From a virus, in the IMG/VR virus record IMGVR_UViG_3300027317_000001, positions 1,898 to 65,897 of that record: 64,000 bases of DNA; one strand, written 5' to 3'. The stretch's first letter is position 1. Every line of letters begins with the position of its first letter. The notes beneath the pieces are model-generated. The model saw only the letters and a program-made list of their open reading frames with translations. It did not search any database and was not told the origin of the DNA. Made by a program: the position numbers and the translations under genes. Of this stretch, positions 442 to 44,410 are shown piece by piece.

Positions 442-500
442 CCGGACGGCTTTAGCCAGTGACGGGATTTCTCCCGCCACTGGTTATGGTCGGTCGGCTA
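442..500 (+). promoter_or_regulatory. family-1 intergenic stem-loop (TTTAG-hairpin-TTATG)
   Basis: TTTAG 451-455, stem CCAGTGACGGGA/TCCCGCCACTGG, TTATGG 484-489, outer stem TAGCCG/CGGCTA. Confidence 0.75.
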
Positions 501-518
501 AAACAGAAAGGACAAAAA

Positions 519-989
519 ATGGGATTGCGGCCGCGACCGGGAAATAGAACAGCACATAGATTTGCGGCAAGCCTATCACGCAGGCTCAGAAACGCCGGGT
601 ACCGGTTCAAGTACGCCGGAAACATGCTAACCGAAGGAATCAAGATATCACAAGGAATACCCGTAGAAATTCACGCCACGATCACCTTCTGCTACGACTA
701 CTACACAGACTCCATTCGCAAGATCTTCGATTCAATGGTCGAAGATCTTAAAAGCATGGGATATTTCGTCCGGCCAAAAAGAAATGCGCTCTACTGGAAC
801 ATATCCGTGTGGCGCATACCGGCAAAAATTGAGAACATCAATGAAGTTTTGCCGGAAATGTTCGCCGAACTGGAACAGCAAATCGCCAACGGCAGAAGCG
901 AAGAAGAAGCATACAAGGACCTAGCAGGGCAGCTTGGGCTCACCGTTTTTCAAACCGGGATGCTGCAATCCTGTATCGAAGAACAGTAA
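519..989 (+). CDS. hypothetical protein
   Basis: AAAGGA RBS precedes ATG at 519 (likely true start of the 459-989 ORF). Confidence 0.65.
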   Translation: MGLRPRPGNRTAHRFAASLSRRLRNAGYRFKYAGNMLTEGIKISQGIPVEIHATITFCYDYYTDSIRKIFDSMVEDLKSMGYFVRPKRNALYWNISVWRIPAKIENINEVLPEMFAELEQQIANGRSEEEAYKDLAGQLGLTVFQTGMLQSCIEEQ

Positions 990-1015
990 CCAAATCAAGC
1001 GTGCCAACCCCTCAA

Positions 1016-1072
1016 CACTCTGGGCGCTTAACCCGGTACGGATATACGCCGTACCGGGTTAAGCACCCAGTG
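1016..1072 (+). promoter_or_regulatory. long intergenic hairpin, variant of family 1
   Basis: CACTCTGGGCGCTTAACCCGGTACGG-ATATACG-CCGTACCGGGTTAAGCACCCAGTG; TTAA...TAA spacing similar to other members. Confidence 0.6.
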
Positions 1073-1100
1073 CACGCTCCCAAACACGTTAAAGGCAGAG

Positions 1101-1472
1101 ATGCTCATCAACTGCGATAACTGCCGTCAAAAAAGCAACGGTAGCGCGTTTTTCCACAACGGGCATTACTACAACCGGCTCAAACCATTCATGGGATATC
1201 CCCTGTATCGAAACATTTGCGACAACAGCATCCTCACCACTTTCGGTACAGGGGACACCCTGAAGAACGCGCTCGATATCGGGTCCATCAGCCGAATCAG
1301 CCCCACCGAATGGGAAGCCGCAATCTCCTACGGCGAATGCGGCACAGTATGGACTCAAAGATTTCCCCACACCTACCCGGTGCCGGACATTTTCGCTAAG
1401 ATCGTCCGGATCTATGAAATGTACCGTACCATTGATGACGCATTCACGCGCATCATAACAGCCTACTCATGA
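1101..1472 (+). CDS. hypothetical protein (N-terminal CxxC)
   Basis: 123-aa ORF, AAAGG RBS, lies between two hairpins. Confidence 0.65.
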   Translation: MLINCDNCRQKSNGSAFFHNGHYYNRLKPFMGYPLYRNICDNSILTTFGTGDTLKNALDIGSISRISPTEWEAAISYGECGTVWTQRFPHTYPVPDIFAKIVRIYEMYRTIDDAFTRIITAYS

Positions 1473-1473
1473 G

Positions 1474-1530
1474 CTGATCAGCTTTAGTCGGCAGCGGGAC
1501 CAGTCCCGCTGCCGGGTATGGTCGATCAGC
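1474..1530 (+). promoter_or_regulatory. family-1 intergenic stem-loop
   Basis: CTGATC..TTTAG(1483)-TCGGCAGCGGGAC CA GTCCCGCTGCCGG-GTATGG..GATCAG. Confidence 0.8.
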
Positions 1531-1552
1531 AAAAATACAAAGGAGAAAAACC

Positions 1553-1912
1553 ATGGCAAAAATGCCGCCCATTACCCCCAAAGATACAGGCACGTGGGTC
1601 GATGAAGCCATTCACGGACGATTTACTTGCCTTCAAATCCTGGAAATCGCATGGGATTACGGGTGGCGGCCGGGCGCGGGAACTGATCCCCGACCTGAGG
1701 CTGACCGGATCCACGAATACCACAACGTCATCAGCGCATTCCGCGAAGACAAAAGCGAACTTCCCAACGGGATCGACATCGACGAAGCCTTGCATGAATA
1801 CCTTGATGAAGCAGAACAGCACATGAACAGTCTCGCTCCAAAAGGGTACGCCTTCACTTACACGCCAGAAGGTAGCTTCGTGCTGATGGAAGCCGAAACG
1901 GACTGCTTCTGA
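1553..1912 (+). CDS. hypothetical protein
   Basis: AAAGGAG RBS, 119 aa. Confidence 0.7.
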   Translation: MAKMPPITPKDTGTWVDEAIHGRFTCLQILEIAWDYGWRPGAGTDPRPEADRIHEYHNVISAFREDKSELPNGIDIDEALHEYLDEAEQHMNSLAPKGYAFTYTPEGSFVLMEAETDCF

Positions 1913-1961
1913 TCCTTTAGTCCGGCGCGGCCGCCGACCGCGCCGGGGTATAGGCTCAGAA
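1908..1961 (+). promoter_or_regulatory. family-1 intergenic stem-loop
   Basis: TCTGATCC-TTTAG(1916)-TCCGGCGCGG..CCGCGCCGGG-GTATAG-GCTCAGA. Confidence 0.8.
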
Positions 1962-1980
1962 CAAAACAAGGAGAAAAACC

Positions 1981-2634
1981 ATGTGGTTAATCACCGAACT
2001 AGTCAACCATGGCATTATCCCCAGTGTGCACCACTGGAACAGGGCATACACTGATGACAAGCCACTCATCATCAAAGGTCCATGGGAATGGCGCATCCAC
2101 CCCGAGTACGGCACGCTCACTCATATGGCCAACTACTCGTGGCTGAGTCGCCGCTACCCGGATTTCGTGCGACCCACCATAACCACGGACGGAATTCGCA
2201 CTCTTCAAATTTTTCCCCGCGCGTTTTCCCTGCCCCACCTTCGATCTGAGGCTGTAAACCTCACCAACACGCTGATTACCACGGCCAAAAACAATAAACT
2301 CATTAACCCAAATGAGCTTGAACGAGTTATCGAACACCTTGCTATAGACGACTGGTATCAGCGTACCGGTCCCAAATTCCTCAACTCGGTAGCCAAACTC
2401 ACCGGAATTAGATTCCCCGTCAGCAATCGAAGCTACCAAGTCTTTAAAGCCATTCTAGAAAAGTACAAGACATGGACTCTCTTCAAAGGGCTTACCATCA
2501 CCTATCGTGGACTGCCCGACAAGCTAGAGTTTCAGCTGGATTTCGCCAAGCTTGCAATCGAGCGAGGGCTTGACTTCTCCGCAAACCGGGTTACTTCCCG
2601 GGGGCGCGAGATCTTGAGCAAGCTTACACCTTGA
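1981..2634 (+). CDS. hypothetical protein
   Basis: AAGGAG RBS, 217 aa. Confidence 0.7.
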   Translation: MWLITELVNHGIIPSVHHWNRAYTDDKPLIIKGPWEWRIHPEYGTLTHMANYSWLSRRYPDFVRPTITTDGIRTLQIFPRAFSLPHLRSEAVNLTNTLITTAKNNKLINPNELERVIEHLAIDDWYQRTGPKFLNSVAKLTGIRFPVSNRSYQVFKAILEKYKTWTLFKGLTITYRGLPDKLEFQLDFAKLAIERGLDFSANRVTSRGREILSKLTP

Positions 2635-2682
2635 GCATTTAGCGCGGCGCGTTCATGAGAACGCGACGCGTTATATGCTCAG
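2629..2682 (+). promoter_or_regulatory. family-1 intergenic stem-loop
   Basis: TGAGCA-TTTAG(2638)-CGCGGCGCGTTC ATGA GAACGCGACGCG-TTATA-TGCTCA. Confidence 0.8.
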
Positions 2683-2758
2683 GGGCAAGCAAAAAAACCA
2701 AAATTTTCATAACTTCCCTGATATTAAATACCGGCCAAAACTACAAGGAGAGTACCCG

Positions 2759-2971
2759 ATGCGAGAGATCACCGAGCGATTCACCAAGGACGACGGCACC
2801 GTCATCACGGTGAGCGCCATCTTCGCGGGCGAGACCGCCACGCTGTACGAGCACACGCGGAACGGCAGGCGCTCGTTTTTCACAGGCTCCCCGGCTCAGA
2901 TTGAGACGATTATGAAGCACTTCCGCGCCGACATGGAGCGCTACGGCTACCGCGCCGAACGTGTCGGCTGA
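2759..2971 (+). CDS. hypothetical protein
   Basis: AAGGAG RBS before ATG 2759 (likely true start within the 2675-2971 ORF); GC-rich codons. Confidence 0.6.
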   Translation: MREITERFTKDDGTVITVSAIFAGETATLYEHTRNGRRSFFTGSPAQIETIMKHFRADMERYGYRAERVG

Positions 2972-3001
2972 CTACCCGGACCGGACCACATGCCCGGTTA
3001 G

Positions 3002-3048
3002 TTGACGCGCTCCCCTCCCTTCAAGGGGAGGGGAGGGGAGCACGTCAA
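3002..3048. mobile_element. minimal palindromic IS200/IS605-end remnant (head-to-head ends)
   Basis: TTGACGCGCTCCCC...GGGGAGCACGTCAA, each arm resembling the GGGGAG(G/C)ACGTCAA ends at 10611, 17241 and 41536. Confidence 0.5.
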
Positions 3049-3128
3049 TGTCTCCAAGCGGCTCGATCAGCTCAAAAGCCAGTAGAGGGCGAATGGGTTC
3101 CTCCCGCCGGAACCGCGTTAGTGGGAAG

Positions 3129-3308
3129 ATGCCGATTTTCGCCAAAGGAGAAGACATGGCCATCCACATACTGACCATGCGGATCATGGCGGACCCGAAA
3201 ATCAGCACCGAGCAAATCTGCGATGAAATCTACCGGGCCTGCGCGGATGTGCCGTTCGCCTTTGACATCACCAGCATCCAGGAAGAAGACCCCCACACAA
3301 ACGGGTGA
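3129..3308 (+). CDS. small hypothetical protein
   Basis: within the 3048-3308 ORF; start at ATG 3129 or 3157 (AAAGGAG RBS favours 3157). Confidence 0.45.
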   Translation: MPIFAKGEDMAIHILTMRIMADPKISTEQICDEIYRACADVPFAFDITSIQEEDPHTNG

Positions 3309-3360
3309 ACACGCAGAGGTCCGTAATCATTATTCGATACATCAACCCATAGGAGATCAA

Positions 3361-3888
3361 ATGCCGAGATGCACTTACATCACACCTCACGCGACCATCC
3401 CGCTCGACTACATCGACGGTGATCTCCACGAGATCGCCCATGGGTATCGCTACGAAATGGCGGAACTCTGCCGCAAGTACCACATCCCCCACCGCTATAT
3501 CACTCCGTATATCAGCCAGTGGAGCTCCGGTTTCGTCATCCAAAGCAATCAAAACTTCGATGACAACCATGTCACGTTGTTAACCACCGACGGTACGTGG
3601 GTGCGACTCCCGCTGAAAGCTGGGGCTGCCCAGTACAAGACGTTGATGCGCCTCGACGACTACGAGCGGCTCATGCAGGACATCGAGGCGGACTACCCGC
3701 CGGGCAGCATCACCGCCACCCTGTCAGCCACGCTCAAGCAAATTCTTGAGGTCTGGGCAAACGCAAAGGCGAACGGGTGTAACCACCTAGACCTGCGAGT
3801 CTTGGATGAAATCGTGGCCGCTCGTCTCAACCCGTTCGTGCAATCCTGGCTGAAACAGGACGCGGAGGAAATCTCCTACTCGGCTTAG
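3361..3888 (+). CDS. hypothetical protein
   Basis: AGGAG RBS before ATG 3361. Confidence 0.65.
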   Translation: MPRCTYITPHATIPLDYIDGDLHEIAHGYRYEMAELCRKYHIPHRYITPYISQWSSGFVIQSNQNFDDNHVTLLTTDGTWVRLPLKAGAAQYKTLMRLDDYERLMQDIEADYPPGSITATLSATLKQILEVWANAKANGCNHLDLRVLDEIVAARLNPFVQSWLKQDAEEISYSA

Positions 3889-3972
3889 GAAATCACGGTT
3901 CACGTGCATTCCCGGTTTCTGATCTTTTAGTCCGGCGCGGTCGGCGGCCGCGCCGGGGTATGGGATCAGAAC
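3870..3972 (+). repeat. about 103-bp near-identical repeat (copy 1) including a family-1 stem-loop
   Basis: matches 6134-6236 with a few substitutions; TTTAG at 3926. Confidence 0.85.
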
Positions 3973-4126
3973 GCCTAGAGAAAAGAGAGAGAGAGAGAAA
4001 GCCAAAATGGACCACTTCACACTCGTAAGCGCGCTCGATAGGGATGCGCAGCGTGAGGAAGTCGAGCGGTCCGTGCTGCGAATCTCCGAGTGACTCGCGC
4101 GAGTCACCTAGTGAACTGTCGGTAAG

Positions 4127-4179
4127 GGATTCCCCGGCCACCGGTCGGCGGAATCCGTCGCCCGGTGGCCGGGGAATCC
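4127..4179 (+). repeat. family-2 53-nt hairpin (copy 1)
   Basis: GGATTCCCCGGCCACCGG...CCGGTGGCCGGGGAATCC; related copies at 4853 and 5425. Confidence 0.8.
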
Positions 4180-4233
4180 GGCAAAGCCGGAGACACCACC
4201 ACCAACCACCACAACAGGAGTGGAGACTCACCA

Positions 4234-4805
4234 TGTGGCACAACAACACGACTGTCAACCGGGCTAAGGATCTGGCTAAGGAAATCGCCGCGATTCTCGG
4301 CTACGAAGTCGTGATCAAGTCGTTCCCTCCCGCTACCCGTATCGAGCTGATCAGTGGCACAAAGCGTCTGATCCTGCACCAGGATGCACGGGAGTCTAAG
4401 CGGATGACCATCATGGGAGGCTTCCCGGACGGTTACAACCGCTACGTCGTCGGTTACAAGCAGCCGAGCATCGGCGTTTCCCTTTCGCGTAGCGCAGCGT
4501 CCATCGCCCGGGATATTCAGCGACGGCTGCTCGGCACGTATGAGCAGCTGCTGGGTGAGGTTATGGCGGTGATGGACGAAAAGACCAAGAACGCTCAGAC
4601 CATGCGGGAGATCGGCCATGACCTCGCTAGCCGGATCTCGGGAAGCAGCGTTCGCGAGTGGGACGAGCATTCTGCCGACATCCGGACGCCCCACGGCGAT
4701 GTGATCAGCATCCGGCCTAACGGCAGTGCCCGCGTCACAATCACCACGGACAACATCGAGTTTCTGCGGGACCTCGCCGACCTGATCAACAAGCACTTCA
4801 GCTAA
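4234..4805 (+). CDS. hypothetical protein
   Basis: GGAG RBS before ATG 4234 (MWHNNTT). Confidence 0.65.
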
Positions 4806-4852
4806 CCGGTCGCCCCACCCGTTAGCCGGAAATCCGATCGTCGGGTGGGGAC

Positions 4853-4905
4853 GGGTTCTCTGGTCACCGGGCGACAGAATCCGTCGCCCGGTGGCCGGGG
4901 AATCC
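4853..4905 (+). repeat. family-2 53-nt hairpin (copy 2)
   Basis: 3' arm and downstream leader (GGCAAAGCCGGAGAC-ACC-rich-ACAGGAGTGG) shared with 4127-4230. Confidence 0.8.
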
Positions 4906-4955
4906 GGCAAAGCCGGAGACAACACCACCACCACACGAGTACAGGAGTGGCTGAC

Positions 4956-5423
4956 ATGTGGATTCCCGACGGCTGGGGAGTGCAGAGCAGCAGCGAAACC
5001 ATCGGCGGTGACAACCAGATCACCGATAGTTACTCTGTCCGCTATCTACTGGCTGACGACAACGGAAACCCGAAGACACGCATCGACTCCGATGGCCGTA
5101 AGGTCTATGCGGTGCTGACCGTCTATGTCTACGCTGCGGCGCGCATGGATGAGCTCGGCAATTTGGAGCCGGACTCTGACGGTCAGCCGGTTATCTGGCT
5201 GGCTACCCAAGTCGAGCGGATGCTCTGCACTACCCCAGAAGATCCGGGCAGTACGGAGATCTGGTCTGACTACGAGTACACCGATCTTGACCAGTTCTTC
5301 GTCACCCAAGAAGCAGCCGACGTTGCGGCACGTCGCATGGCCGAACTTTACGCGGCTGACGCTCAGCTGTTCCAGCGCGATTTCGATTGGGACGGCCTCG
5401 CTCCGTGGGAGCGGTACGCCTGA
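4956..5423 (+). CDS. hypothetical acidic protein
   Basis: AGGAG RBS before ATG 4956 (MWIPDGW). Confidence 0.65.
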   Translation: MWIPDGWGVQSSSETIGGDNQITDSYSVRYLLADDNGNPKTRIDSDGRKVYAVLTVYVYAAARMDELGNLEPDSDGQPVIWLATQVERMLCTTPEDPGSTEIWSDYEYTDLDQFFVTQEAADVAARRMAELYAADAQLFQRDFDWDGLAPWERYA

Positions 5424-5444
5424 CGGGTTCTCTGGTTACCGGTC
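5339..5444 (+). repeat. 106-bp exact direct repeat (copy 1)
   Basis: identical to 6013-6118. Confidence 0.9.
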
Positions 5445-5477
5445 GGCGGATTCCGCCGACCGGTGGCTGGGGTATCC
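5425..5477 (+). repeat. family-2 53-nt hairpin (copy 3)
   Basis: GGGTTCTCTGGTTACCGGTCGGCGGA T TCCGCCGACCGGTGGCTGGGGTATCC. Confidence 0.8.
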
Positions 5478-5509
5478 GGCAGTACTGTATCCGCTGTTAG
5501 GAGTGATCG

Positions 5510-5680
5510 ATGGTCGCATATGTGGAGCCGGTAGTGGATCGTTTCGGGTTCCTTTACTACGAGATCCGATACGAGGCGAATGGTAAGATCACGGCGGGTC
5601 CCCGGTATTGCTACCGGGAGGTGGCGATCCAGGTTCTCCAGAGCTTGGCTAAGAACCTCGGGTGCACGATTCGCACTTGA
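5510..5680 (+). CDS. small hypothetical protein (56 aa, absent from the ORF track)
   Basis: AGGAG RBS; translates MVAYVEPVVDRFGFLYYEIRY...LGCTIRT*; stop is the TGA within the TTGA end of an IS605-type right end. Confidence 0.6.
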   Translation: MVAYVEPVVDRFGFLYYEIRYEANGKITAGPRYCYREVAIQVLQSLAKNLGCTIRT

Positions 5681-5805
5681 CCTAACTCTGCCCCGGCCGC
5701 GGGGCCGGGGCTTCCTTGTTCATCCGCTGGCGCTCAGCTCCCGATGCAATCCGGCTTATGGTCCGGCTACCCTCACGCCTCGGTCTGTAGCGGAAGGACG
5801 CGGCC
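5677..5805 (-). mobile_element. orphan IS200/IS605 right end / TnpB omega-RNA-like segment
   Basis: minus strand reads ...CGGATGAACAAGGAAGCCCCGGCCCCGCGGCCGGGGCAGAGTTAGGTCAA: subterminal hairpin plus TCAA end typical of tnpB 3' regions. Confidence 0.6.
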
Positions 5806-5806
5806 T

Positions 5807-6012
5807 ATGACCCCCGACCCCACCCGGAAGGAGGGGAGCAACCTTGACGAACTGGCCGCCCGCCGATCGGCTCGGCGCGCAAACACCGCGGGTTAGCAAG
5901 GTCCCCACCTACATCTCCACGGCCGGGCCTGAGTGTGTGGAGCTGGCCGAGGCCGTGGGACTGGTCCTGCACCCGTGGCAGCGCTACGTCCTGAAGCATG
6001 GCCTCGGGGAGC
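5807..6012 (+). pseudogene. 5' fragment resembling an actinobacterial siphovirus/prophage terminase large subunit
   Basis: LGAQTPRV..P....AGPECVELAEAVGLVLHPWQRYVLKHGLGERP resembles the N-terminus before Walker A; sequence then switches into the 106-bp duplication. Confidence 0.6.
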
Positions 6013-6118
6013 GGCCGAACTTTACGCGGCTGACGCTCAGCTGTTCCAGCGCGATTTCGATTGGGACGGCCTCGCTCCGTGGGAGCGGTACGCCTGACGG
6101 GTTCTCTGGTTACCGGTC
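6013..6118 (+). repeat. 106-bp exact direct repeat (copy 2)
   Basis: identical to 5339-5444. Confidence 0.9.
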
Positions 6119-6133
6119 AGCCAGTTATCTGGC

Positions 6134-6236
6134 AATCTCCTACTCGGCTTAAGAAATCACAGTTCACGCGCATTCCCAGTTTCTGATCCTTTAGTCCGGC
6201 GCGGTCGGCGGCCGCGCCGGGGTATGAGATCAGAAA
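6134..6236 (+). repeat. about 103-bp near-identical repeat (copy 2) including a family-1 stem-loop
   Basis: matches 3870-3972; TTTAG at 6190. Confidence 0.85.
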
Positions 6237-6262
6237 CCTAGGTAGAAGAGAGAGATAAAGAA

Positions 6263-6910
6263 ATGGCACGACCTGAGTCTCTTCAAAAACCAGTAGCAAT
6301 AACCTATATGGAATCCCCAGCAAATGCGCTGCTAATCACCACCTGCTCGTACGGCAAAGACTACGCTGTAGGAATCGAAAACACCCAGCCCAACGGGGAA
6401 TGGGGAAAATATGTCTGTATTGGAGTCTATGAAAGGCGTGCCATCGCACTTAACCGCCACAATCGGCTCGTAAACCAATACATCAAGAAAGGCTTCAGCG
6501 TCACCCGGCACGCCGTAGACAACACTACAGAAACCGGACCCCTAACCCGGTGCACCAAGTGCTATTGGCTGTACGAGCGGGAAGGCATCCCCTACGGCAT
6601 CCATCTCTACCGGAGAATCAGCGACCGCCACGGAGCAGAGTGGTATTACAGCATATGCATTGACGTGCACCTCACAACATTCAACACAGCAAAAATCATC
6701 GATCAAAGCCGCATTCTCGGCATCGTCCGCTCGACTCCCAGCGACTACCACGCAGATCTGTACGATCTGAACGTCAACGCGAACATACCAGTACGGTCAA
6801 TAACCTTCTCAAAGACGCGCTCTAAGATCACGAGCGACAACGTGTGCGAAGCGCTCGTCAGCACCTATCACTCGTACAAGGAAGAGCTCAGAGATCACAT
6901 AGTGATCTGA
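6263..6910 (+). CDS. hypothetical protein
   Basis: 215-aa ORF downstream of a family-1 hairpin. Confidence 0.65.
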   Translation: MARPESLQKPVAITYMESPANALLITTCSYGKDYAVGIENTQPNGEWGKYVCIGVYERRAIALNRHNRLVNQYIKKGFSVTRHAVDNTTETGPLTRCTKCYWLYEREGIPYGIHLYRRISDRHGAEWYYSICIDVHLTTFNTAKIIDQSRILGIVRSTPSDYHADLYDLNVNANIPVRSITFSKTRSKITSDNVCEALVSTYHSYKEELRDHIVI

Positions 6911-6919
6911 GCGCTCAAC

Positions 6920-7174
6920 ATGACAAGGAGGTACGGTATGCGGATCATGCACGAGTCCTTCATCCGCGGCGATGAAAAGATCAGCCTAACCGCGCTGCTA
7001 AATGGTGCACATTCAACTCTCACGGTAAACCAGTGGGTACGTGAAATGATCACAAGCTCCGACGTTTGCACAAACGCTGAGCAGGTGATCTCTGCACGGT
7101 TCAACGCTCGTGTCACTTGGCTGAAGAACCGTGGCTACAACCGCATTGGCGGATACGAAAAAACCATCCAGTAG
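6920..7174 (+). CDS. hypothetical protein
   Basis: AAGGAGG RBS favours a start at ATG 6938. Confidence 0.6.
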   Translation: MTRRYGMRIMHESFIRGDEKISLTALLNGAHSTLTVNQWVREMITSSDVCTNAEQVISARFNARVTWLKNRGYNRIGGYEKTIQ

Positions 7175-7231
7175 CCGACCGGATCTAATCGGTAATGGGC
7201 TCAGTCCCATTACCGGTTATGTTCGATCGGA
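7173..7231 (+). promoter_or_regulatory. family-1 intergenic stem-loop variant
   Basis: CCGACCGGA-TCTAAT-CGGTAATGGG..CCCATTACCG-GTTATG-TTCGATCGG. Confidence 0.7.
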
Positions 7232-7243
7232 ACAGGGAAGGCC

Positions 7244-7699
7244 ATGGGAGAGAAAAGGATTACCCACAGCTCAATACTCGCGCTGATAATGACCCTGGAA
7301 AACATCCATCCCAAGCAGATCACAAACGAAATCATCCAGATCAACGGGGAAGAATACCACATCGCTCCAGAAGGCAGCGAAAACAACGTGTACGAAGTCG
7401 AAAACGGTTCCATGGCAGTCAAATGGAACCCCTGCGGTCGTCGCTGCAACGCGGAACAGCACTATTCCAAGATCGACCGCTACGCACCACACTGGTGCCC
7501 TGCCCTGATAATGAGCTGCCCTCATCCCACATTAGCGACAGGCGTTTTCCAAGATTGGCGAAGGGTCATTCAATGGTGCAACGACGAGCAGCGCATCATC
7601 GCCACCATTTACCCGACCGTAGAAGAAGCAACCAACGTCTACAACAAACTAGTTGAACAGTTCACCACGCGTGAACTCTCGCAACCTGTGCTGTTTTAA
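7244..7699 (+). CDS. hypothetical protein, C-terminal QPVLF
   Basis: 151-aa ORF, GGGAAGG RBS. Confidence 0.6.
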   Translation: MGEKRITHSSILALIMTLENIHPKQITNEIIQINGEEYHIAPEGSENNVYEVENGSMAVKWNPCGRRCNAEQHYSKIDRYAPHWCPALIMSCPHPTLATGVFQDWRRVIQWCNDEQRIIATIYPTVEEATNVYNKLVEQFTTRELSQPVLF

Positions 7700-7742
7700 T
7701 CAGTTCCGGAGCTCACCACGCCCGGGGCTGGTTATGACGGCT
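7691..7742 (+). promoter_or_regulatory. family-1 intergenic stem-loop variant
   Basis: TTTAAT-CAGTTCCGG..CCGGGGCTG-GTTATG, two G.U-type pairs. Confidence 0.6.
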
Positions 7743-7759
7743 CAGTGCGGGAGGCCGAA

Positions 7760-8071
7760 ATGAGAAAGATACCAATTGAAGCAAAAATTCACCAAGCATT
7801 AACCGGGGTTCTCAACCTGATGGGATTAAAAGAACCCAAGGACGTTACAATCCGCAACGCCTACCTTTGCCGATACACCGGTAAGGGTTACACCACCGAG
7901 CACACAAAAACAACATGCCAGCCGCTTAACCCGATCGCTGCAGCGAAAATGAAAAGATACCGGGCGCTTTTCGAACAGCGGTTGGAAGACCTAAAAGACT
8001 ACTCAGTTGAGGTAGTCCACGATCCGGAATCCAAGCGCCTACTGCGCATCATCGTAAGCAAGCGAAACTAG
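7760..8071 (+). CDS. hypothetical basic protein
   Basis: GGGAGG RBS before ATG 7760. Confidence 0.6.
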   Translation: MRKIPIEAKIHQALTGVLNLMGLKEPKDVTIRNAYLCRYTGKGYTTEHTKTTCQPLNPIAAAKMKRYRALFEQRLEDLKDYSVEVVHDPESKRLLRIIVSKRN

Positions 8072-8089
8072 CAGAGAAAGGAAGAAAGC

Positions 8090-8743
8090 ATGCTCGAAGA
8101 GATCTACCCGATCAGCATCACCCCGATCGAGGATGGTAAGAAGATCGCCCTCAAGGCGCCCTTCCATCCCGACTGTGCCGACAACGCGAAGTCCATCGGC
8201 GGGCGATACAACCGAGACCGTGGATGGGTTTTCGACGCCCAAGACGAGGCTCGGGTTCGGCAGCTCGCTCGAGAAATCTGGGGAACCGACGGCAGCCACC
8301 CGGTCCCCACATTAACCGTGCTGGTAAACCTTGACGAGATCGACGCCGATATCAGGAGCCAGGAACTCTGGCTCTTCGGACGTAGGATCGCCTACCGTCC
8401 GCGGCGCGATGCAAAGGTCGTACTCGGTGCTGGCGTGATCATCGTCCACGGCGGGTTCCAGTATCGCGGGGGAAGCATGCGCTATCCGGAGCTCGCTCCG
8501 AAGGATGGCACCATCCTGGAGGTGCGGTATGTCCCGCACGAGCACAAGGATCTGAGGCTTCCCGGTATCACCGTCAAGGATGGCGAGATTCCAGACCAGC
8601 TCACCGGAGACGAGCTGATTGCAACTCTCCGGGACCTGGTATGCGACCTGTGGCAGGCAGCCAAGCACGGCCACCCTCTCCCAGAGGACATCACAGCGAG
8701 GATGCAGAGGGCAGGTATCACCCTCCCGGAGAATCACGACTAA
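8090..8743 (+). CDS. conserved phage/plasmid-type hypothetical protein
   Basis: AAAGGAAG RBS; N-terminal APFHP..A.SIGGRY...W.F pattern seen in many phage hypotheticals. Confidence 0.7.
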   Translation: MLEEIYPISITPIEDGKKIALKAPFHPDCADNAKSIGGRYNRDRGWVFDAQDEARVRQLAREIWGTDGSHPVPTLTVLVNLDEIDADIRSQELWLFGRRIAYRPRRDAKVVLGAGVIIVHGGFQYRGGSMRYPELAPKDGTILEVRYVPHEHKDLRLPGITVKDGEIPDQLTGDELIATLRDLVCDLWQAAKHGHPLPEDITARMQRAGITLPENHD

Positions 8744-8794
8744 CCCTCCTGTCCGGCCGGGTGGGCAACCGCCCACCCGGCTCACCAAGACCTC

Positions 8795-8833
8795 CGGATT
8801 CCTCCCCCGCCTTTAGGCCGGGGAGGAATCCGG
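8795..8833. repeat. GC-rich hairpin resembling an IS605-type end / possible terminator
   Basis: CCGGATTCCTCCCCCGCCTTTAGGCCGGGGAGGAATCCGG; core like 56951-56982. Confidence 0.5.
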
Positions 8834-8864
8834 ACTAAAGAATCAACCAGAAAGGAATCAGGCC

Positions 8865-9365
8865 GTGAAGCTGGAAAACGTTCTGACGGAAAGCGGTATC
8901 GAATACAAGGAGGTCGTCACGCGCAGATTGCGCGTGAAGAACCCGCTTATCTGGCTCAAGTTCCGCGCCGCGGACGAGCTGTGGGTCCTTAAGGGCGTTG
9001 CCGCCGAGTACACCACCGTCTGGCACGACTACGACGTTCTGAGCCCAGAAGACCCTACGTTCACCGTAACCGCCGAGTCATCGGACGGCAGCAAGGTGCA
9101 GACCTTCCAGCCACACGAGCTTCCCGGGGACGTCAGGGAGTACATCAAGGACTGGCTGCGGGAGACCCGGCCTGTGCGGCTCGGGGAAACGCTGCGCGCG
9201 CCGATCAGAGAGCAGCTCAAGGCCGAGCGAGAAAAGATTATGCAGCTGGAGCGGGAGCGTGAGCATCTCGTGAACACGATCGCAAGGCTGCGCGGCATAA
9301 TCCACACACTTGAGGCGGAAAACAACAGCCTCAAGAGGCAGCTTCCCGCGGCCGAGGTCGCCTGA
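8865..9365 (+). CDS. hypothetical protein with C-terminal coiled coil
   Basis: AAAGGA RBS, GTG start, heptad-rich C-terminus. Confidence 0.65.
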   Translation: MKLENVLTESGIEYKEVVTRRLRVKNPLIWLKFRAADELWVLKGVAAEYTTVWHDYDVLSPEDPTFTVTAESSDGSKVQTFQPHELPGDVREYIKDWLRETRPVRLGETLRAPIREQLKAEREKIMQLEREREHLVNTIARLRGIIHTLEAENNSLKRQLPAAEVA

Positions 9366-9388
9366 CCAGCGGGAATGGGTGACCTGGT

Positions 9389-9882
9389 ACATGGAGATTA
9401 TGCATCTACTCAATCGGCTGGACCTCTACTGGCGCGTCCACTGGGCAGACTGCCCCGAATTCTCAGCCGACACCGCATACTCGGCCCCCTGGGGAGCCGA
9501 GCGGTGCGAAGATGATCCCTCCCGCTACCGGTGCGTCGCCTGCGACGGCACCGGGATGGACTACACCGATCCCATATGCGGCACTTGCCGGGGGAGTGGC
9601 TGCGCTGACTGCGACCGCACAGGTGTGAGCGCCACCTGTGTCTCATGCACGGGTGAGGGATCAATCGAGTGCGATCCCGGGTACTCGGCATGCACCTCCG
9701 CTGAGGATCTGCGCTCCTATTTTCAGGGTCGGGAGCCAGACCCCGGCGAGCAGGTCCTCATCTTTGAGGGAGAGCTGGCCGGTTACGGCCTAGAAGGGGA
9801 GCCTCTGGTCATCCCCACTCGGACGGTCGCCCGCACCACCTGGGGCGAGCTGACCCGTCTCCTCGAGGAGATGGCGGCGTGA
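9389..9882 (+). CDS. DnaJ-type zinc-finger (CxxCxGxG repeat) protein
   Basis: CVACDGTG, CGTCRGSG, CADCDRTG, CVSCTGEG; start uncertain (9389 or 9398). Confidence 0.65.
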
Positions 9883-10166
9883 CTGTCTCGGGAATCATCT
9901 TCTAGGTCAGCCAGCCGGACGCACGTCGCCGGACGTGCGTCTCCTAGCCGACCTAGGAGGATCTCAGTAGAAATACATGGCTATGTTGCGAGAATCCTCC
10001 TTGATGTTCGTTCAACTATCGCCAGATGAGAGGACGAATTTGATCTCGGCGGTATCGTTGACGAAATTCGGCGGCGCTTTGGAGACACAGTCGATATAAA
10101 TGAACTTTCCGGCGTGAACGCCGGGGAGAACGCCAACCCACGTCAAACAAAAAGAGGTAGGCCCCG

Positions 10167-10562
10167 ATGGAAGACATGATCCTGAACAGCAACACGATGC
10201 CGGGCATCGTTCTTCGCGATTTCTCCATTGACGATCTCCCCCGCAACGCTCGCGACCTGGTGAACCTGGCCGCAAAGGTCTCCTGGAACGTCATCGGCGA
10301 GCGGTTCGCGGACATGGACGGAGCCCCCTTCTTCACCCTCCAGTTCTGGCGACCCATGCCGATCTGGCATGTCATCGCCACCTGGCACAGTCGGCCAACC
10401 GGCGGCCGCGGATACCGACTGACCACGCCGGTCTACAGGCACATCGCACCGGACGGCATTGGCTCCCACTACTGGCGCTATGCGCCGTCCCTGCGGTTCA
10501 TCCGCCAGCTCATGCTCGACAACCCCGTCCGGCCGCTGTCCGGGGAGGGCAACACGGCCTAA
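10167..10562 (+). CDS. hypothetical protein
   Basis: GAGG RBS, GC-rich codons. Confidence 0.6.
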   Translation: MEDMILNSNTMPGIVLRDFSIDDLPRNARDLVNLAAKVSWNVIGERFADMDGAPFFTLQFWRPMPIWHVIATWHSRPTGGRGYRLTTPVYRHIAPDGIGSHYWRYAPSLRFIRQLMLDNPVRPLSGEGNTA

Positions 10563-10574
10563 CCGGTAGTTGGG

Positions 10575-10611
10575 CGGCGAGCCCCAGTCTTCAGGACGGG
10601 GAGGACGTCAA
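10575..10611 (+). mobile_element. orphan IS200/IS605 right-end remnant
   Basis: GAGCCCCAGTCTTCAGGACGGGGAGGACGTCAA; last 14 nt match the 41523-41536 end. Confidence 0.6.
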
Positions 10612-10783
10612 GGCCCAAATGGCGCAAATCGAGGACGAGGTCCTGACCAAGTCCGAGTGATCTTGGCCGGGTGCGGACCCTGGAAATCCGGTCCGCACCC
10701 GGTCATGGCCACTCGGCCAAATCCACCACACCGGGTCATGCGATCCCCTGGAAGATCAGGCATCAGAAAGGAGGAAGAGCAAC

Positions 10784-11089
10784 GTGGTTGCACGGAAAAA
10801 AACCGTATGGGTAAACCCGCGTCTCTTCGAGAATGCGAAAAAGAATCTACCAAAGGGTGTCACCCTATCCACTGCGGTCGAGCTAATACTAGACGCCCTG
10901 CGTGAAAGCAAAATCACATCAACTGACCCGGGCAAGATCAAAGAACGATCTCAAGCCGTCTCTATCTACCTGTACAACCCGGATAACCATAAAGTGTGCG
11001 CATCCCAAATAGCGAAAATCATTCACAGCATCGGTAGCGGTCTACTGGGAGTACGCCTTGAAGTCGAGAACTGCAAGAAGAATCGATAG
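10784..11089 (+). CDS. hypothetical protein
   Basis: AAAGGAGG RBS, GTG start. Confidence 0.6.
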   Translation: MVARKKTVWVNPRLFENAKKNLPKGVTLSTAVELILDALRESKITSTDPGKIKERSQAVSIYLYNPDNHKVCASQIAKIIHSIGSGLLGVRLEVENCKKNR

Positions 11090-11714
11090 GTTAATCAGGA
11101 TAGCCAGAAGCACAAACAACCCGTACGAAAAAGAACTCTACGAGAAAGTCGCCACACTGCTGGCGAAAAAGGTTGGCATGCCGCCCAGCCCAGATGACAT
11201 CGTATGGACCACACTCCCCATGCAGGATGACGCACACCTTAAGCAAAAGTGCGACGCCATCAATTCGGTGATCGAAGCCGTGGGTTGCATCGGGGTACTA
11301 GAACAGTCAGGCAACCAGCCCACCCTGCACATTGTCGGCATTCGATCCTCGGTTGAACTCCTAGAATCACTCCTTCCCACCGTGCTGGGAACCATGGAAT
11401 CCATGCTCGCGATAGCCATCACCGCCTTCGCGAGCGAACTCGCCACCTTAGATGAAAAGTCTTTCGTACAGGAGATGGATATGTTCGCGCGATCATACCG
11501 TCATGGAATCGGGAAGGCGATAGCGGACTGTGTGCGAACACCGATTCCAGACGACAAGCGCAAACAGATTGAGCAAGAGTTCGCAAACCGGTTCCCATGC
11601 ACGGAAGTGATCGAATATGATCTCGACGCCAGAGAATTTAACGCCGGTTACCATGCGGGGAAGGAAGCATGGAGGCGAAAAATCCCTGTTACCCGACGCG
11701 AGATCGAAGGCTGA
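11058..11714 (+). CDS. DUF2786-like domain protein
   Basis: RIDRLIRIARSTNNPYEKEL..KVATLLAKK resembles DUF2786; later IVG..SSVELLE and AGYHAG patterns fit that family. Confidence 0.55.
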   Translation: MKSRTARRIDRLIRIARSTNNPYEKELYEKVATLLAKKVGMPPSPDDIVWTTLPMQDDAHLKQKCDAINSVIEAVGCIGVLEQSGNQPTLHIVGIRSSVELLESLLPTVLGTMESMLAIAITAFASELATLDEKSFVQEMDMFARSYRHGIGKAIADCVRTPIPDDKRKQIEQEFANRFPCTEVIEYDLDAREFNAGYHAGKEAWRRKIPVTRREIEG

Positions 11715-11715
11715 T

Positions 11716-11770
11716 CTGATTGCTGCATAGCCATCTCGGGGTACGCCACCATTCCCGAGGTGGCACTGGA
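11716..11770 (+). promoter_or_regulatory. intergenic stem-loop with family-1 architecture
   Basis: CTGATTGCT-GCATA-GCCATCTCGGG..CCCGAGGTGGC-ACTGG-AGCAATCAG. Confidence 0.55.
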
Positions 11771-11807
11771 GCAATCAGCTTACAAAATCAGCGAAAAAAG
11801 GAAGACA

Positions 11808-12376: not shown

Positions 12377-12388
12377 ACCACCATACAG

Positions 12389-12425
12389 AAACCCCTCACC
12401 GACCGGTGAGGGGTTTCTTATTCTT
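12389..12425 (+). terminator. intrinsic terminator ending the early region
   Basis: GAAACCCCTCACCG-A-CCGGTGAGGGGTTTC followed by T-rich TTATTCTTT. Confidence 0.8.
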
Positions 12426-12706: not shown

Positions 12707-14206
12707 CTACTGCTCTACGAGTTCAGCATCAACGATACCGAGCTGCGCAGCAACATCTTCCATCTTCACCGGGGCTTCCAAAGCCCTAGCCGCTTGGCTT
12801 GCTTCCTTTCCAAAGATCCGGCCGATTAGACCCATTTGTGAGTGCTGTGTGGCTTGAGCTCGCACGGTCAGCGTGAAACCTTCCCGGTCCATATCCTCCT
12901 TGATCTTCAGCATCCGCTGAAGCCTGTCGATCTCCCGGCTCAAGTTCGCATCCAAATAGCCACCATTACATTCCTCGGCGAAACGGGCCAAAAGTATCCT
13001 TTGAGTCTGTATTTCGATCAAAATCTCCTGGATTCGTGCGAGCTGATCACGGGTTCTTGCTTCTACCGGGAGCTCAAAAGCACACTCTGTATCCGGCTGA
13101 TACTGGGGGCACTTATCAGCCAAGAAGCAACCGTCACAAGATCGGATAGGCTGATCATCGATGTCCAAAAGCCGGATGGTCTTAGTGACCTCTCCCGAAT
13201 CCGTAAGCTCCCTCACACGCTTCTCTGCGATCCGTACACCAGGCAGCGGACGACGGCCATCACGACGATTCGACGGCTTTCTAGAACCTCCCAGACGCTT
13301 GCCGGAATTTCCCGATTCAACAGGTTCAATATCAAGTCGATTCGGGGTGAGTTCCGCATTTTCCGCGCCATGCCAATTTTCTGAAGTAGTTACTACTTCT
13401 GATCGACGCTCATTCGCAAACTCCATAAACCTCTGCCAACTCCAAATCGAAAGCCTCAAACACTCCGTGACATCATCCGATTCAATGAGATCCGGATCGA
13501 ACCCAGCATCAAGGAACTGCGTCCGATGCCGCCTACGAGCCTGCTCCTTATACCGGCGCGGGTAACGCTTCAGCTCATTCCCAGTCCACACAATCGTGTC
13601 CCCATACTGGGCAGGAGACAACCAGCTCGTACTCAAAACCGAATCCCATGGGATCTCCATGATCGCATCCATCTGCGTCATGGCCACCCCATGCAAACGC
13701 ACACCCTGCCGGACCAGCGACATCAACAACGGAGTCAGATCCCGGTTCGACGCCACCACCTGTGGCACACCAACACGGCCGTACACAGTGGCGAGCTCAA
13801 CCAGAACCTCAACCCCATCATCCTCATGCCAAATAGGCAGAAACTTGTCCCCGGAAAGCTCGTGAAGCCGATCCCTAAGCTGCTGGCGCATCTCAGGCTC
13901 AAACACCCTGGCATCCAGCTCCGTGACCGTATGAACACGGTCAACATTCGCCTCCACGAACTTCAAATATGAATCCAAAAGAGCAGGCACATCATACTTA
14001 TCCGGGTTCTTGTTAATCGAATGCCCACCCGATTCAACGAAAATGTGAACATCTTCCGGAAACTTTTCAGCAAGCTTCCATCGTTCCGGATAATTTGTGC
14101 GCCTGCTCAATCCCACAAACGACAACGCCATATGGCGTACACCATTTTCATACAACAGTTTCCGCCATCCGGGAATCTCAGCCCCGGCATAAAACAACGT
14201 CGTCAC
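12707..14206 (-). CDS. degenerate TGT/DpdA-like TIM-barrel protein fused to a Cys cluster and coiled coil
   Basis: IFVESGGHS (cf. DSGG), ELD, FLPIWH, LHGV, PWDSVLSTSWL in transglycosylase motif order; C-terminal CDGC..DKCP..C. Confidence 0.55.
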   Translation of the reverse strand: MTTLFYAGAEIPGWRKLLYENGVRHMALSFVGLSRRTNYPERWKLAEKFPEDVHIFVESGGHSINKNPDKYDVPALLDSYLKFVEANVDRVHTVTELDARVFEPEMRQQLRDRLHELSGDKFLPIWHEDDGVEVLVELATVYGRVGVPQVVASNRDLTPLLMSLVRQGVRLHGVAMTQMDAIMEIPWDSVLSTSWLSPAQYGDTIVWTGNELKRYPRRYKEQARRRHRTQFLDAGFDPDLIESDDVTECLRLSIWSWQRFMEFANERRSEVVTTSENWHGAENAELTPNRLDIEPVESGNSGKRLGGSRKPSNRRDGRRPLPGVRIAEKRVRELTDSGEVTKTIRLLDIDDQPIRSCDGCFLADKCPQYQPDTECAFELPVEARTRDQLARIQEILIEIQTQRILLARFAEECNGGYLDANLSREIDRLQRMLKIKEDMDREGFTLTVRAQATQHSQMGLIGRIFGKEASQAARALEAPVKMEDVAAQLGIVDAELVEQ

Positions 14207-15036
14207 GGATTCTTCCTCGTACTTACACGTATATACGAATTTCTCACAGTACCCGTACGCTGCGCAGAAGAAGAGGAAGAAGATTTTTGCGGCTGCTGAC
14301 CAATAACCCCCTGGGCGAACTGCGCTGCCCGCCTAGCCAGCGAAGCCAGCCCAGCAACACGCATATAACGCCGCCTCGGCTGCCCCTGAGCCTGGGACGC
14401 TGACTGCGTCTGCGAGGGGGCAGAAACAGCCGGAAAATTGGCCTGAGGAACGGAAACCGATACCCTGGGGGCGCGAATAAGATGCGGATACTTCTGCTGG
14501 TAGGCGATAATCGTATCCAGGCGAGCCTCAGTACGACGCTTCGTAGTCTCACCAGCCCACTTCGCGCGAAGCTCCAAATCCTTCGCCAGATGATCCCGGG
14601 CCTGCTCCCGGCGCATCCCCTCAAACTTCAACCGCTGCTGCAACCGATCAGCATCGTGCCTCATACGCTGCTTATGCTTCGTCTCAGCAGCGCGAAGCTG
14701 ATGCTGGTGGGCCATGCGCATAATTCGCGCCCTCGTCTTAGCCTGAAGATCAGCCCGGAACTCGTACTCGCTTCGCTTCAAATCCGAAAGACGCTGAGCT
14801 TGTGAAAACGACACATCAGCAGCATCTCGCCGATCCTGCCGACGCCGCTCATACTCGGCTTCACGGCGCTGATGGTAAAACTGCTCACCAAGCTGCTTCT
14901 TCCTCAACCAGCGCCTATCGTCATACTGGCTCTTAGCAATATGCTCAAGAACACGGCCGAAACGGCCACCGCCACCACGACCGGACGAACCCTCGGAAGC
15001 AAGAATCCTAGCGGCGGCCCCAAAATTAATAGCCAT
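14203..15036 (-). CDS. basic R/Q-rich hypothetical protein (possibly virion/DNA-associated)
   Basis: 277 aa, ATGA overlap with the next gene, low complexity. Confidence 0.6.
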   Translation of the reverse strand: MAINFGAAARILASEGSSGRGGGGRFGRVLEHIAKSQYDDRRWLRKKQLGEQFYHQRREAEYERRRQDRRDAADVSFSQAQRLSDLKRSEYEFRADLQAKTRARIMRMAHQHQLRAAETKHKQRMRHDADRLQQRLKFEGMRREQARDHLAKDLELRAKWAGETTKRRTEARLDTIIAYQQKYPHLIRAPRVSVSVPQANFPAVSAPSQTQSASQAQGQPRRRYMRVAGLASLARRAAQFAQGVIGQQPQKSSSSSSAQRTGTVRNSYIRVSTRKNP

Positions 15037-17291: not shown

Positions 17292-17343
17292 CAGGGAAGG
17301 GTCCTTCCGCATCTACCTGAAGGATGGTAAGGGTCCCCGGGAT

Positions 17344-17646
17344 GTGGTGGACAACCCACGCCACCTGAGCGCGGCCATGCGGAAGCTCAGGCGAGCCCAG
17401 CGCGCCCTGTCCAGAACCCAGCCTGGCAGCAGGCGGCGCGAGCGCGCCCAGCGGAGGGTGGCCCGTTTGCACGCCCTCGTTGCCCAACGGCGCGCCACCT
17501 GGCTGCACCACATTTCCAAGCGCTTGACCACGAGCTTCGGCACAATTGTTATCGAAGACCTGGATGTTGTTAACATGACCAGGTCGGCGCGCGGTACGCG
17601 TGAAAACCCTGGGCGGAACGTCCGCGCCAAGGCTGGGCTCAATCGA
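17344..17646 (+). pseudogene. tnpB: internal tnpB fragment (bridge helix and RuvC-II)
   Basis: LRRAQRALSR..PGS.RR..A..RVARLH..VA..R..WLH..SK.L....IVIEDL.V.NM..SA.GT...PG.NV.AKAGLNR; lacks RuvC-I and RuvC-III. Confidence 0.85.
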
Positions 17647-20994: not shown

Positions 20995-21320
20995 GACGGA
21001 GCATCCCCCGGAAAACCTCGGTTAGCGTTGTAAAAGTCATTCCAGCTCTTCGCGGCAGAAAAGAGCCGCGTGTTCCGCAGATTCGCGTACGCTGCCGGAT
21101 CCTCAATCGGCGCGTACGTAGCCTGTGGCATGCCCACCGCCCCCAGCCGCTCCTTAATGTGGCGGCGGCCCTTCACCTGAAAAGCATCAACCACGGTAGA
21201 AGAAACCGCCCAACCCCTCTTGCGGGTAGGGGTGGTGGGCATGGCTGAAACATTGCGCGGTGCGGCAAGCGACCTGCCGACCTTCGGAAAATTGGTCGTA
21301 ACCTTGTCAGCCATGCCCAT
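20976..21320 (-). CDS. hypothetical protein
   Basis: AAGGGAT RBS, 114 aa. Confidence 0.55.
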   Translation of the reverse strand: MGMADKVTTNFPKVGRSLAAPRNVSAMPTTPTRKRGWAVSSTVVDAFQVKGRRHIKERLGAVGMPQATYAPIEDPAAYANLRNTRLFSAAKSWNDFYNANRGFPGDAPSWFRLS

Positions 21321-41144: not shown

Positions 41145-41202
41145 TAAGGCAACCCCAATTGCTCAGATCGCCAAGTACTGATAGGATTCAGCGCTAGTTT
41201 AG

Positions 41203-41536: not shown

Positions 41537-41551
41537 AAGTTTGGAGGGCCG

Positions 41552-44295: not shown

Positions 44296-44410
44296 GGTTG
44301 TGCCGCCGCCCCCCCGCAGGTGCGCGGTAGTTTGGCGGCGCAAGCCCCGGTCTTCCGGGGAGCACGTTAATTCCTTCCCGCCTAAAGGCAGTGGCACCAA
44401 TACACCTCCA

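Follow-up and report, generated by a model that had tools for sequence, protein, structure and literature searches.

Two described systems come closest to the hairpins treated here. The RNase III signals R0.3, R0.5, R1, R1.1 and R1.3 in the early messenger RNA (mRNA) of phage T7 (and T3) are intercistronic sense-strand hairpins within an early gene array, and the promoter-early stem-loops (PeSLs) of T4-type phages are short repeated motifs between small non-essential ORFans in plastic regions, at which insertions, deletions and replacements occur between close relatives (PMC2839356, PMC4122927). The present analysis concerns a family of intercistronic hairpins in the early gene array of an actinophage, contained in a stretch of 64,000 nucleotides (nt), referred to as the window, which spans bases 1898-65897 of the IMG/VR contig IMGVR_UViG_3300027317_000001 (67,807 bp, linear class, completeness of 66% according to CheckV). 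The elements constitute a genuine family of strand-specific hairpins with a conserved fold, which belongs to the early or accessory gene arrays of actinophages and is absent from Rfam. Positions refer to the window unless they are given as genome coordinates.

When folded, the T7 signals R0.3, R0.5, R1.1 and R1.3 show an upper stem of 9-13 bp, an irregular region with UUAUGAU on its 3' side, and a lower stem. The actinophage hairpins are built alike: their upper stem measures about 10-13 bp, the centre is irregular with a conserved 3' side (UUAUGAU in T7, G/U-UAUG here), a lower stem follows, a U-tract is missing and the stems vary in sequence. However, their centre is made up of wobbles and symmetric 1x1 mismatches (U.U, G.G), while that of T7 is a larger asymmetric internal loop, and the family differs further in its actinomycete hosts, in having at least 11 copies as opposed to five, and in a stop codon systematically placed in the 5' arm. 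The PeSLs, on the other hand, unite a strong sigma-70 promoter and a terminator stem-loop and show sequence conservation, whereas the hairpins described here have no promoter at or beside them and no U-tract, and it is the fold that is conserved, together with a core of 5-6 nt.

Both strands were scanned with the motif TTTAG...(G/T)TAT(G/A), which returned nine sites on the + strand between genome 1697 and 9633 and none on the minus strand. A sequence-only reading of the window had previously listed eight sites of TTTAG or a variant, and all of them were recovered where it had placed them (451, 1483, 1916, 2638, 3926, 6190, 7184 and 7695), while the ninth copy of the core lies about 200 nt outside, just left of the window at genome 1697 (L014:1684-1746, with L014 numbered in genome coordinates). 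One further motif site at genome 37145 is unrelated and is backed by neither of the two covariance models introduced below. Each of the nine copies folds as a single hairpin with -32 to -43 kcal/mol and z-scores (z) of -5.0 to -8.8, and none of 200 shuffled sequences folded as stably as a real copy. The common design recognised in the sequence-only reading, with an outer stem, an irregular middle and an inner stem, holds for these copies in one register of 25 pairs, and the distance of 28-29 nt between TTAG and TAT that it reported for most sites is found in eight of the nine, the copy at 7695 having 33 nt.

Two covariance models were used, R1, first run on the set of nine copies, and R2, built from 20 copies. 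With R1, the copies score 58-74 bits on the + strand and the minus strand of the same sites only 10-38 bits; over both models the + strand range is 55-74 bits, and sense scores are about twice the antisense scores. R1 additionally picks the sites 10649-10720 and 1016-1074 and a palindromic variant at L014:1215-1257. The matches of R2, 11 in number with 49-67 bits, are all on the + strand and all within the first 12.6 kb of the 67.8-kb contig, and none falls among the 51 kb of minus-strand genes. The covariance model proposed in the sequence-only reading as a check has thus yielded 11 strong + strand matches as well as members in other phages, which are presented below.

The hairpin comprises 25 pair positions, 11 outer and 14 inner, corresponding to about two helical turns. 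The outer stem of approximately 11 pairs is variable in sequence, the inner stem has 11-14 pairs, the loop is free in sequence and length with 3 to about 20 unpaired nt, and the conserved centre is located 11 pairs from the base and 12-14 from the loop. In the 20 copies this centre begins with a U.G wobble (14/20), a U.U mismatch (18/20) whose 3' U is invariant and a U-A pair (19/20), continues with A-U (15) or G-C (4) and then with G.G, G.U or A-U, and usually ends with another U.G. Two core subtypes, UUUAG/GUAUG and UUUGG/UCAUG, can be distinguished, which differ by a compensatory change from A-U to G-C within the core. The outer arms contain the stop codon (CTGA...TCAG, CTAG...CTAG), and the stems are wholly different in sequence between copies. 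That pairing is kept in spite of this, as the sequence-only reading had claimed, is evident from alignment A1 of the nine copies, in which 90% of the cells pair and 18 of the 25 pairs have changed on both sides, compared with only 34-45% pairing when the registers are slid by 1-3 columns. With 20 copies from three lineages, 87.6% of the cells pair, compensatory changes affect 22 of the 25 pairs and slid registers reach 35-42%; between strains, a U.G of the hairpin E5 has become C-G in strain L020 with pairing kept. The fold is under selection, and the earlier interpretation as a fold-recognised signal is well supported by the covariation seen in this genome, among its strains and over three unrelated phage lineages.

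The position relative to the genes is equally regular and agrees with the earlier statement that each element lies between a stop codon and the next ribosome-binding site. In 9 of 13 elements the upstream stop codon starts -4 to +11 nt relative to the first paired base, and in 11 of 13 the stem is followed at a distance of 13-35 nt by the next start codon, with an A-rich leader and a ribosome-binding site in between, the latter 5-20 nt past the 3' arm in nearly all copies and lineages. No copy has a U-tract after its stem, the first ten bases being A-rich with 0-2 T, and none of the family elements was reported by the terminator scan. The same scan located a canonical intrinsic terminator with hairpin and T-tract at 12387-12418 (+), which closes the + strand array of small genes packed into the left 14 kb, and canonical U-tract terminators are also present in the relative L016. 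The hairpins are not canonical terminators, and the phage uses U-tract terminators elsewhere. Searched against Rfam 15, the whole window gave no match at the gathering thresholds and, in E-value mode, only weak matches to microRNA-precursor hairpins, and an exact 15-mer from the commonest hairpin had only chance matches in IMG/VR.

The individual copies in the window are numbered E1 to E9 from left to right. E1 (438-501, +) scores 68.5 bits with R1 and 57.5 bits with R2 and folds with -40.2 kcal/mol (z -7.0); its core is UUUAG opposite UUAUG, its stem base holds the TAG stop of the gene 109-441, and the start codon of the next gene is at 519. E2 (1014-1076, +; R2 48.9 bits, z -8.9) has drifted in the window to a near-perfect palindrome with CUUAAC opposite GUUAAG, and its variant in the strain contig NODE-78 (L161:1804-1866) retains GUUAUA on the 3' side. 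E3 (1470-1533, +; R1 74.2 bits, -41.3 kcal/mol, z -8.2) lies between the genes 1101-1472 and 1553-1912, and E4 (1903-1965, +; R1 69.7 bits, z -5.0), which is identical in strain L020, contains the TGA stop of the gene 1553-1912 in its 5' outer arm. E5 (2625-2688, +; R1 63.9 bits) is followed by the breakpoint of strain L020 at 2695. E6 (3913-3975, +; R1 71.2 bits) and E7 (6177-6239, +; R1 72.8 bits) belong to the left (3867-3971) and right (6131-6235) copies of a 105-nt direct repeat, D4, with 93% identity. E8 (7171-7234, +; R1 65.2 bits, z -6.6) has the core UCUAA opposite UUAUG, and in E9 (7682-7749, +; R1 58.4 bits), whose minus-strand fold is 15.7 kcal/mol weaker, the core itself holds the TAA stop of the gene 7244-7699; its loop is longer than in the other copies, and loop and stem are remodelled in NODE-78. 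A member overlooked in the sequence-only reading is the second-subtype hairpin at 10649-10720 (+; R1 44.2, R2 61 bits; -50.1 kcal/mol, z -9.0), with the core CUUGG opposite UCAUG, a subtype also found in G001, L167 and L169. Of the two looser members named in that reading, E2 can be accepted on its R2 score of 49 bits and the GTTATA of the L161 variant, whereas the other (11716-11777, +; -41.2 kcal/mol) shares the layout only, with the centre CAUAG opposite CACUG, and is matched neither by R1 (list to E=10) nor by R2 (list to E=0.05). Left of the window, a branched variant at L014:1150-1270 (genome coordinates) places the usual outer stem around two hairpins, the right one being a palindromic relative of E4; in L026 and L027 the left one shows a compensatory change from C-G to U-A and an extended stem.

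A degenerate pattern derived from the alignment gave one match in IMG/VR and 39 metagenome loci, which were divided into true members and chance matches by model scoring. The family is present in strain variants of the phage, namely NODE-78 of ERZ795042 (87,907 bp; L161 and L142), L143, L144, L165 and L020. NODE-78 is 94-98% identical to the window, starts at genome 1106 and should extend about 23 kb past the right end of the contig; it probably holds the missing third of the genome. Outside these strains, G001 is a complete 55-kb provirus with three elements on the gene strand and with proteins identical to those of Streptomyces sp. NPDC001407, and L167 is an unrelated metagenomic contig of 5.7 kb with three elements between small co-directional genes. 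In all groups of true members the stop codon lies within the 5' arm and the ribosome-binding site after the 3' arm, and the three lineages with the family share no detectable early genes. A sample of 151 Streptomyces genomes contained two plausible further members, which is no estimate of frequency because the first-look filter, scoring 35 of about 12,000 candidates per genome, had a low sensitivity.

The orientation of the hairpins is that of the gene strand for the 11 copies here, the three in G001 and the three in L167. This gene-matched orientation, the asymmetric core, the wobbles, which would be A.C on the other strand, and the tie to stop codon and ribosome-binding site argue for an action on the transcript, and the same core in phages of different actinomycetes without shared early genes argues for a shared host factor or enzyme. 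We tentatively infer, for transcript, cleavage and enzyme alike, that the elements may be intercistronic processing and stability signals cut by RNase III, a reading to which we would give somewhat less than an even chance. The hairpins would act in the RNA of a long co-directional early transcript, in which a double-strand-specific endoribonuclease, most likely the host RNase III (AbsB/Rnc in actinomycetes), would attach to the helix and cleave it at its distorted centre. Owing to the mismatches, probably only one strand would be cut, leaving an upstream message with a protective hairpin at its end and a downstream message that starts about 30 nt ahead of its ribosome-binding site, as at the five RNase III sites of the T7 early mRNA. 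The idealised RNase III substrate has 22 bp with the target at the dyad or centre, and mismatches at the target site permit single-strand cleavage that leaves stabilising 3' hairpins (PMC3867540), a description which the 25-pair helix with its central distortion appears to fit. On the + strand of the 14.4-kb array (genome 1-14400), no sigma-70-like site of the pattern TTGAC-N16-19-TANNNT occurs before window 12425, which fits one long transcript that starts from an upstream promoter and needs processing. In strain L143 the array extends at least 900 nt left of the contig, and the promoter or promoters of the early array lie either left of the contig or are unconventional. Among the three functions considered in the sequence-only reading, RNase III-type sites, N4-like promoters and recombination sites, it is the first that agrees best with geometry, position, strand, absence of a U-tract and T7 layout, with the cleavage itself presumed.

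However, several observations weigh against processing by RNase III. The nearest relatives according to the DpdA-like protein (45-56% identity) have the same synteny, with this gene convergent on a small-gene array, which contains ArdA in two of the three relatives anchored in this way, but the family is absent from the 6-10 kb of early array beside the gene, the best score being 20 bits in L019. Two of the relatives, L016 and L018, carry other long hairpins without U-tract at the same positions, in addition to true U-tract terminators; phages of this group therefore habitually place long sense-strand hairpins, of more than one sequence family, between their early genes. Between strains, the elements are individually dispensable. 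The compatibility of many mismatches with G.U pairing on the + strand, noted in the sequence-only reading, holds overall with 59 G.T versus 19 A.C cells, but without the core columns 15, 19 and 20, which include the two conserved wobbles, the excess is weak (28 versus 18), so that it is mainly the conserved core and the orientation that account for the strand asymmetry. The lack of a promoter-like site over 14 kb can also be taken as a hint that the elements themselves start transcription, and of the listed sequencing runs that hold the stretch, none is on record as RNA. No requirement of bacterial RNase III for a fixed UUU/AUG centre is known, so that the core might be kept invariant by a different binding partner. 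The folding of the T7 signals, finally, relied on cleavage-site positions attributed to Dunn and Studier (1983). The core motif was also sought around the 16S rRNA of one Streptomyces genome, but no interpretable processing stem emerged there.

The early region is a mosaic of low-GC cassettes (51-54%) with the TTTAG family and high-GC cassettes (60-63%) with a second hairpin family described below. In one metagenome the high-GC parts have an approximately six-fold higher depth, which indicates that they are shared with another abundant phage. The comparison of relatives for gene shuffling, which the sequence-only reading had also put forward, revealed that cassettes are gained, lost and replaced beside the hairpins. 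The 105-nt direct repeat that includes E6 and E7 bounds an insert of about 2.1 kb (3976-6130, +) with a GC content of 61-62% compared with 51-54% in its flanks, which is associated with the repeats D1, D2 and D4 and carries three hairpins of the second family and a terminase-like stub; NODE-78 represents the empty site with a single repeat copy. Accordingly, L142 joins genome 5897 to 8028 with the insert absent, and in L144 the right junction to the insert differs. L020 is collinear with the window until about 10 nt past E5, after which a different cassette with a TTAG/TTATG hairpin of its own takes over. In one soil strain, a deletion (joint 4193 to 4926) has removed the gene flanked by two second-family copies, and NODE-78 has an extra UCAUG-subtype hairpin of about 100 nt between the genes 6263-6910 and 6938-7174, where the window has a remnant only. 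In these indels and replacements between close strains, the E6/E7 insert, L020, the 4193-4926 deletion and the NODE-78 hairpin, the elements resemble the PeSLs. The junctions are long direct repeats (105 and 109 nt) or microhomologies. In the 66%-complete contig there is no integrase gene, the tyrosine recombinase family PF00589 is absent (controls were positive in 14 of 14 genomes), as is the Y1 transposase family PF01797, and the sole match to a TnpB domain has 12.9 bits and two stops. Judging from the type of junction and the lack of a recombinase or transposase, we regard the exchange as a consequence of the hairpins being repeated and not as their function, and ordinary homologous or illegitimate recombination at repeated elements, with cassette exchange as a by-product, explains the data. 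Outside the T4-type phages, the strains provide a clear example of repeated regulatory hairpins at which cassettes are exchanged.

Other explanations of the hairpins themselves have to be weighed against RNase III processing. They could remain uncut as mRNA structures that delimit or stabilise the upstream cistron, be it as barriers to 3'-exonucleases, as pause or attenuation sites or as terminators without U-tract, which we consider unlikely but a serious contender. The early region of phiC31 reportedly contains terminators without poly-U, and these, together with the "I-shaped" actinobacterial terminators, resemble the family as stable, GC-rich, U-less hairpins after actinophage early genes, although the family stands apart by its conserved mismatched centre and its fixed length of two turns. 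The great stability of the hairpins, their start at the stop codon and the other hairpin designs at the same positions in L016 and L018 speak for such a role; stability alone, however, leaves the invariant, asymmetric mismatched centre across three lineages unexplained. Whether U-less hairpins are true terminators is disputed, since purified mycobacterial RNA polymerase needs a U-tract and did not stop at hairpins lacking one, and contaminating nucleases were raised by the authors as a possible source of earlier reports of U-less terminators (PMC3993855). Canonical terminators are moreover used at the end of the array, and efficient termination ahead of every gene would call for a promoter ahead of every gene, of which none is visible. 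Somewhat less likely again is a conserved centre bound by a dedicated protein, such as an endoribonuclease encoded by the phage, an antitermination or anti-Rho factor, or one that links termination at one cistron with initiation at the next, the hairpin placing stop codon and ribosome-binding site side by side. A conserved core with freely varying stems is typical of RNA hairpins recognised by proteins, and the constant placement of stop codon and ribosome-binding site across nearly all copies and lineages would suit this role, but no candidate protein was found: ten early proteins were scanned without a match to any Pfam family, three of them searched further had homologues only in near-identical strains, and the absence of early genes shared by the three lineages argues against a phage-encoded partner and for a host one. 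Slightly lower still we would place an undescribed, strand-specific and fold-recognised actinophage signal, in which a dedicated host or phage factor other than RNase III would read the invariant U.U/U.G centre and which would both punctuate expression and border mobile cassettes, as an integron-like or PeSL-like system lacking a recognisable recombinase.

A role at the level of DNA, as sites of recombination or transposition for a structure-specific enzyme acting on the extruded or single-stranded + strand in the manner of attC, REP/RAYT or IS200/IS605-like elements, is improbable. Like integron attC sites, the elements are structure-conserved, imperfect hairpins of variable sequence that follow promoterless open reading frames in one direction and are strand-specific, and the insert bounded by E6 and E7 and missing in NODE-78, the switch of cassette about 10 nt after E5 in L020 and the hairpin of about 100 nt that is present or absent between the same two genes speak for such a role. 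In this respect, the idea of cassette shuffling in the sequence-only reading was justified as to gain, loss and replacement beside the hairpins, but not as to mechanism: the 66%-complete contig contains no IntI-type or other tyrosine recombinase, no Y1 transposase and no convincing TnpB frame, the R''/R' cores (GTTRRRY/RYYYAAC) are absent, and the irregularities are symmetric mismatches and not extrahelical bases. The junctions have no fixed crossover and consist of the long direct repeats and microhomologies that homologous or illegitimate recombination gives, and the hairpin sequences vary between copies, unlike REP or IS ends. The link to an IS605/HUH element that the sequence-only reading drew from the shared TTTAG is likewise not supported, a single common 5-mer being weak evidence. 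If anything a little less probable is a function as hairpin promoters for a phage RNA polymerase or a modified host one, each early gene forming its own unit. The promoters of the N4 virion RNA polymerase are likewise strand-specific hairpins ahead of early genes, and here the + strand lacks a sigma-70-like promoter over 14.4 kb and the distance from the UAUG motif to the start codon, about 30-45 nt, would suit a promoter-leader layout. N4 promoters, three per genome, have a stem of 5-7 bp, a loop of 3 nt and conserved loop and stem bases, whereas the stems here, with 11-14 plus 11 bp, have twice the N4 length and neither the sequence nor the length of the loop is constant. The 66%-complete contig yielded no gene for a single-subunit RNA polymerase (PF00940, a family for which the control genomes could give no positive) or for a sigma factor. 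Furthermore, most copies of UAUGNN are without one of the bases that a -10 element needs, T at position 6 or A at position 2 (alignment A2), and injection of a polymerase is hardly to be expected of the Streptomyces provirus in which one member resides; the N4 analogy offered in the sequence-only reading is thus not supported. Three other candidates were rejected on anatomy alone: a repressor operator or "stoperator", because of the asymmetric half-sites and variable stems, a ribozyme, as the element is a simple hairpin without an Rfam match, and translational bypassing, as each downstream gene is equipped with a ribosome-binding site and start codon of its own.

The early and anti-defence regions of actinophages consist of small ORFans with fast turnover, whose gene expression is largely unstudied, and the hairpin family offers a testable handle on the expression of such arrays, all the more as it recurs in the provirus of a cultured Streptomyces strain. 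If RNase III does cut the elements, the processing pattern of the T7 early mRNA would be extended to high-GC Gram-positive hosts, the sequence and structure preference of the actinomycete RNase III would be defined, and a compact insulator and processing part for operon engineering in Streptomyces would become available.

To the right of the early array, the genes of the contig are larger and almost all on the minus strand, and they include a DpdA/TGT-like gene, a family A DNA polymerase, a ribonucleotide reductase, SNF2 and DnaB helicases, baseplate J and tail genes. The DNA polymerase has at most 49% identity to those of the Streptomyces phages BRock, pSt2308 and GiJojo, and the region had no DNA-level match among 50,697 phage records in search modes for near and distant relatives. 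The phage turns up in metagenomes from compost, bioreactor, manure and soil. Relatives of the DpdA/TGT-like protein (PHROG 887; 12707-14206, minus strand) with 42-48% identity are encoded on contigs of 100-112 kb in assemblies of Streptosporangium, Nonomuraea, Microbispora and Herbidospora, which suggests from these protein similarities that phages of this group may be extrachromosomal or co-cultured in Streptosporangiaceae. CRISPR spacers match the early region at 1136-1165, 1226-1258, 2424-2456, 5169-5202 and 8842-8880; these stretches were seen in Logan contigs from two metagenomes, flanked by the type I-E repeat GTGCTCCCCGCGCACGCGGGGATGATCC, which is widespread in actinomycetes (Thermoactinospora, Saccharopolyspora, Nocardia, Microbispora, Thermobifida), and none of the 80 loci compared for assignment of a host had a matching spacer.

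The second hairpin family has the consensus GGRTYCTCYGG, a variable stem and CYGGGGNRTCC, with 24-28 bp and U.G pairs on the sense strand; its outer arms are conserved and its inner stems completely different. It is located in the window at 4127-4204, 4853-4930 and 5425-5502, and elsewhere in L016 (about 14960-15015 and 17330-17385, minus strand), L018 (20184-20290 and about 21190-21275, minus strand) and L020 (1336-1390), and is thereby common to phages that are just 48-56% identical in the DpdA-like protein. At 3001-3120 there is a 120-nt element with a long hairpin (TTGACG...CGTCAA) that is precisely missing in one soil strain (joint 3000 to 3121) and may be a small mobile or deletable element. 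A short hairpin followed by GGAGGACGTCAA occurs at 3006-3050, 10585-10612 and 41190-41540 as well as in L019 (17148-17447, minus strand). The region 41000-45000 is a GC-rich (63-67%) + strand island within the minus-strand replication module and holds one large + strand gene, whose product of 688 amino acids is an HNH nuclease fused to a DEAD/ResIII helicase; the non-coding stretch of 350 nt on the 5' side of this gene bears a likeness, by eye, to a stretch in a distant relative.

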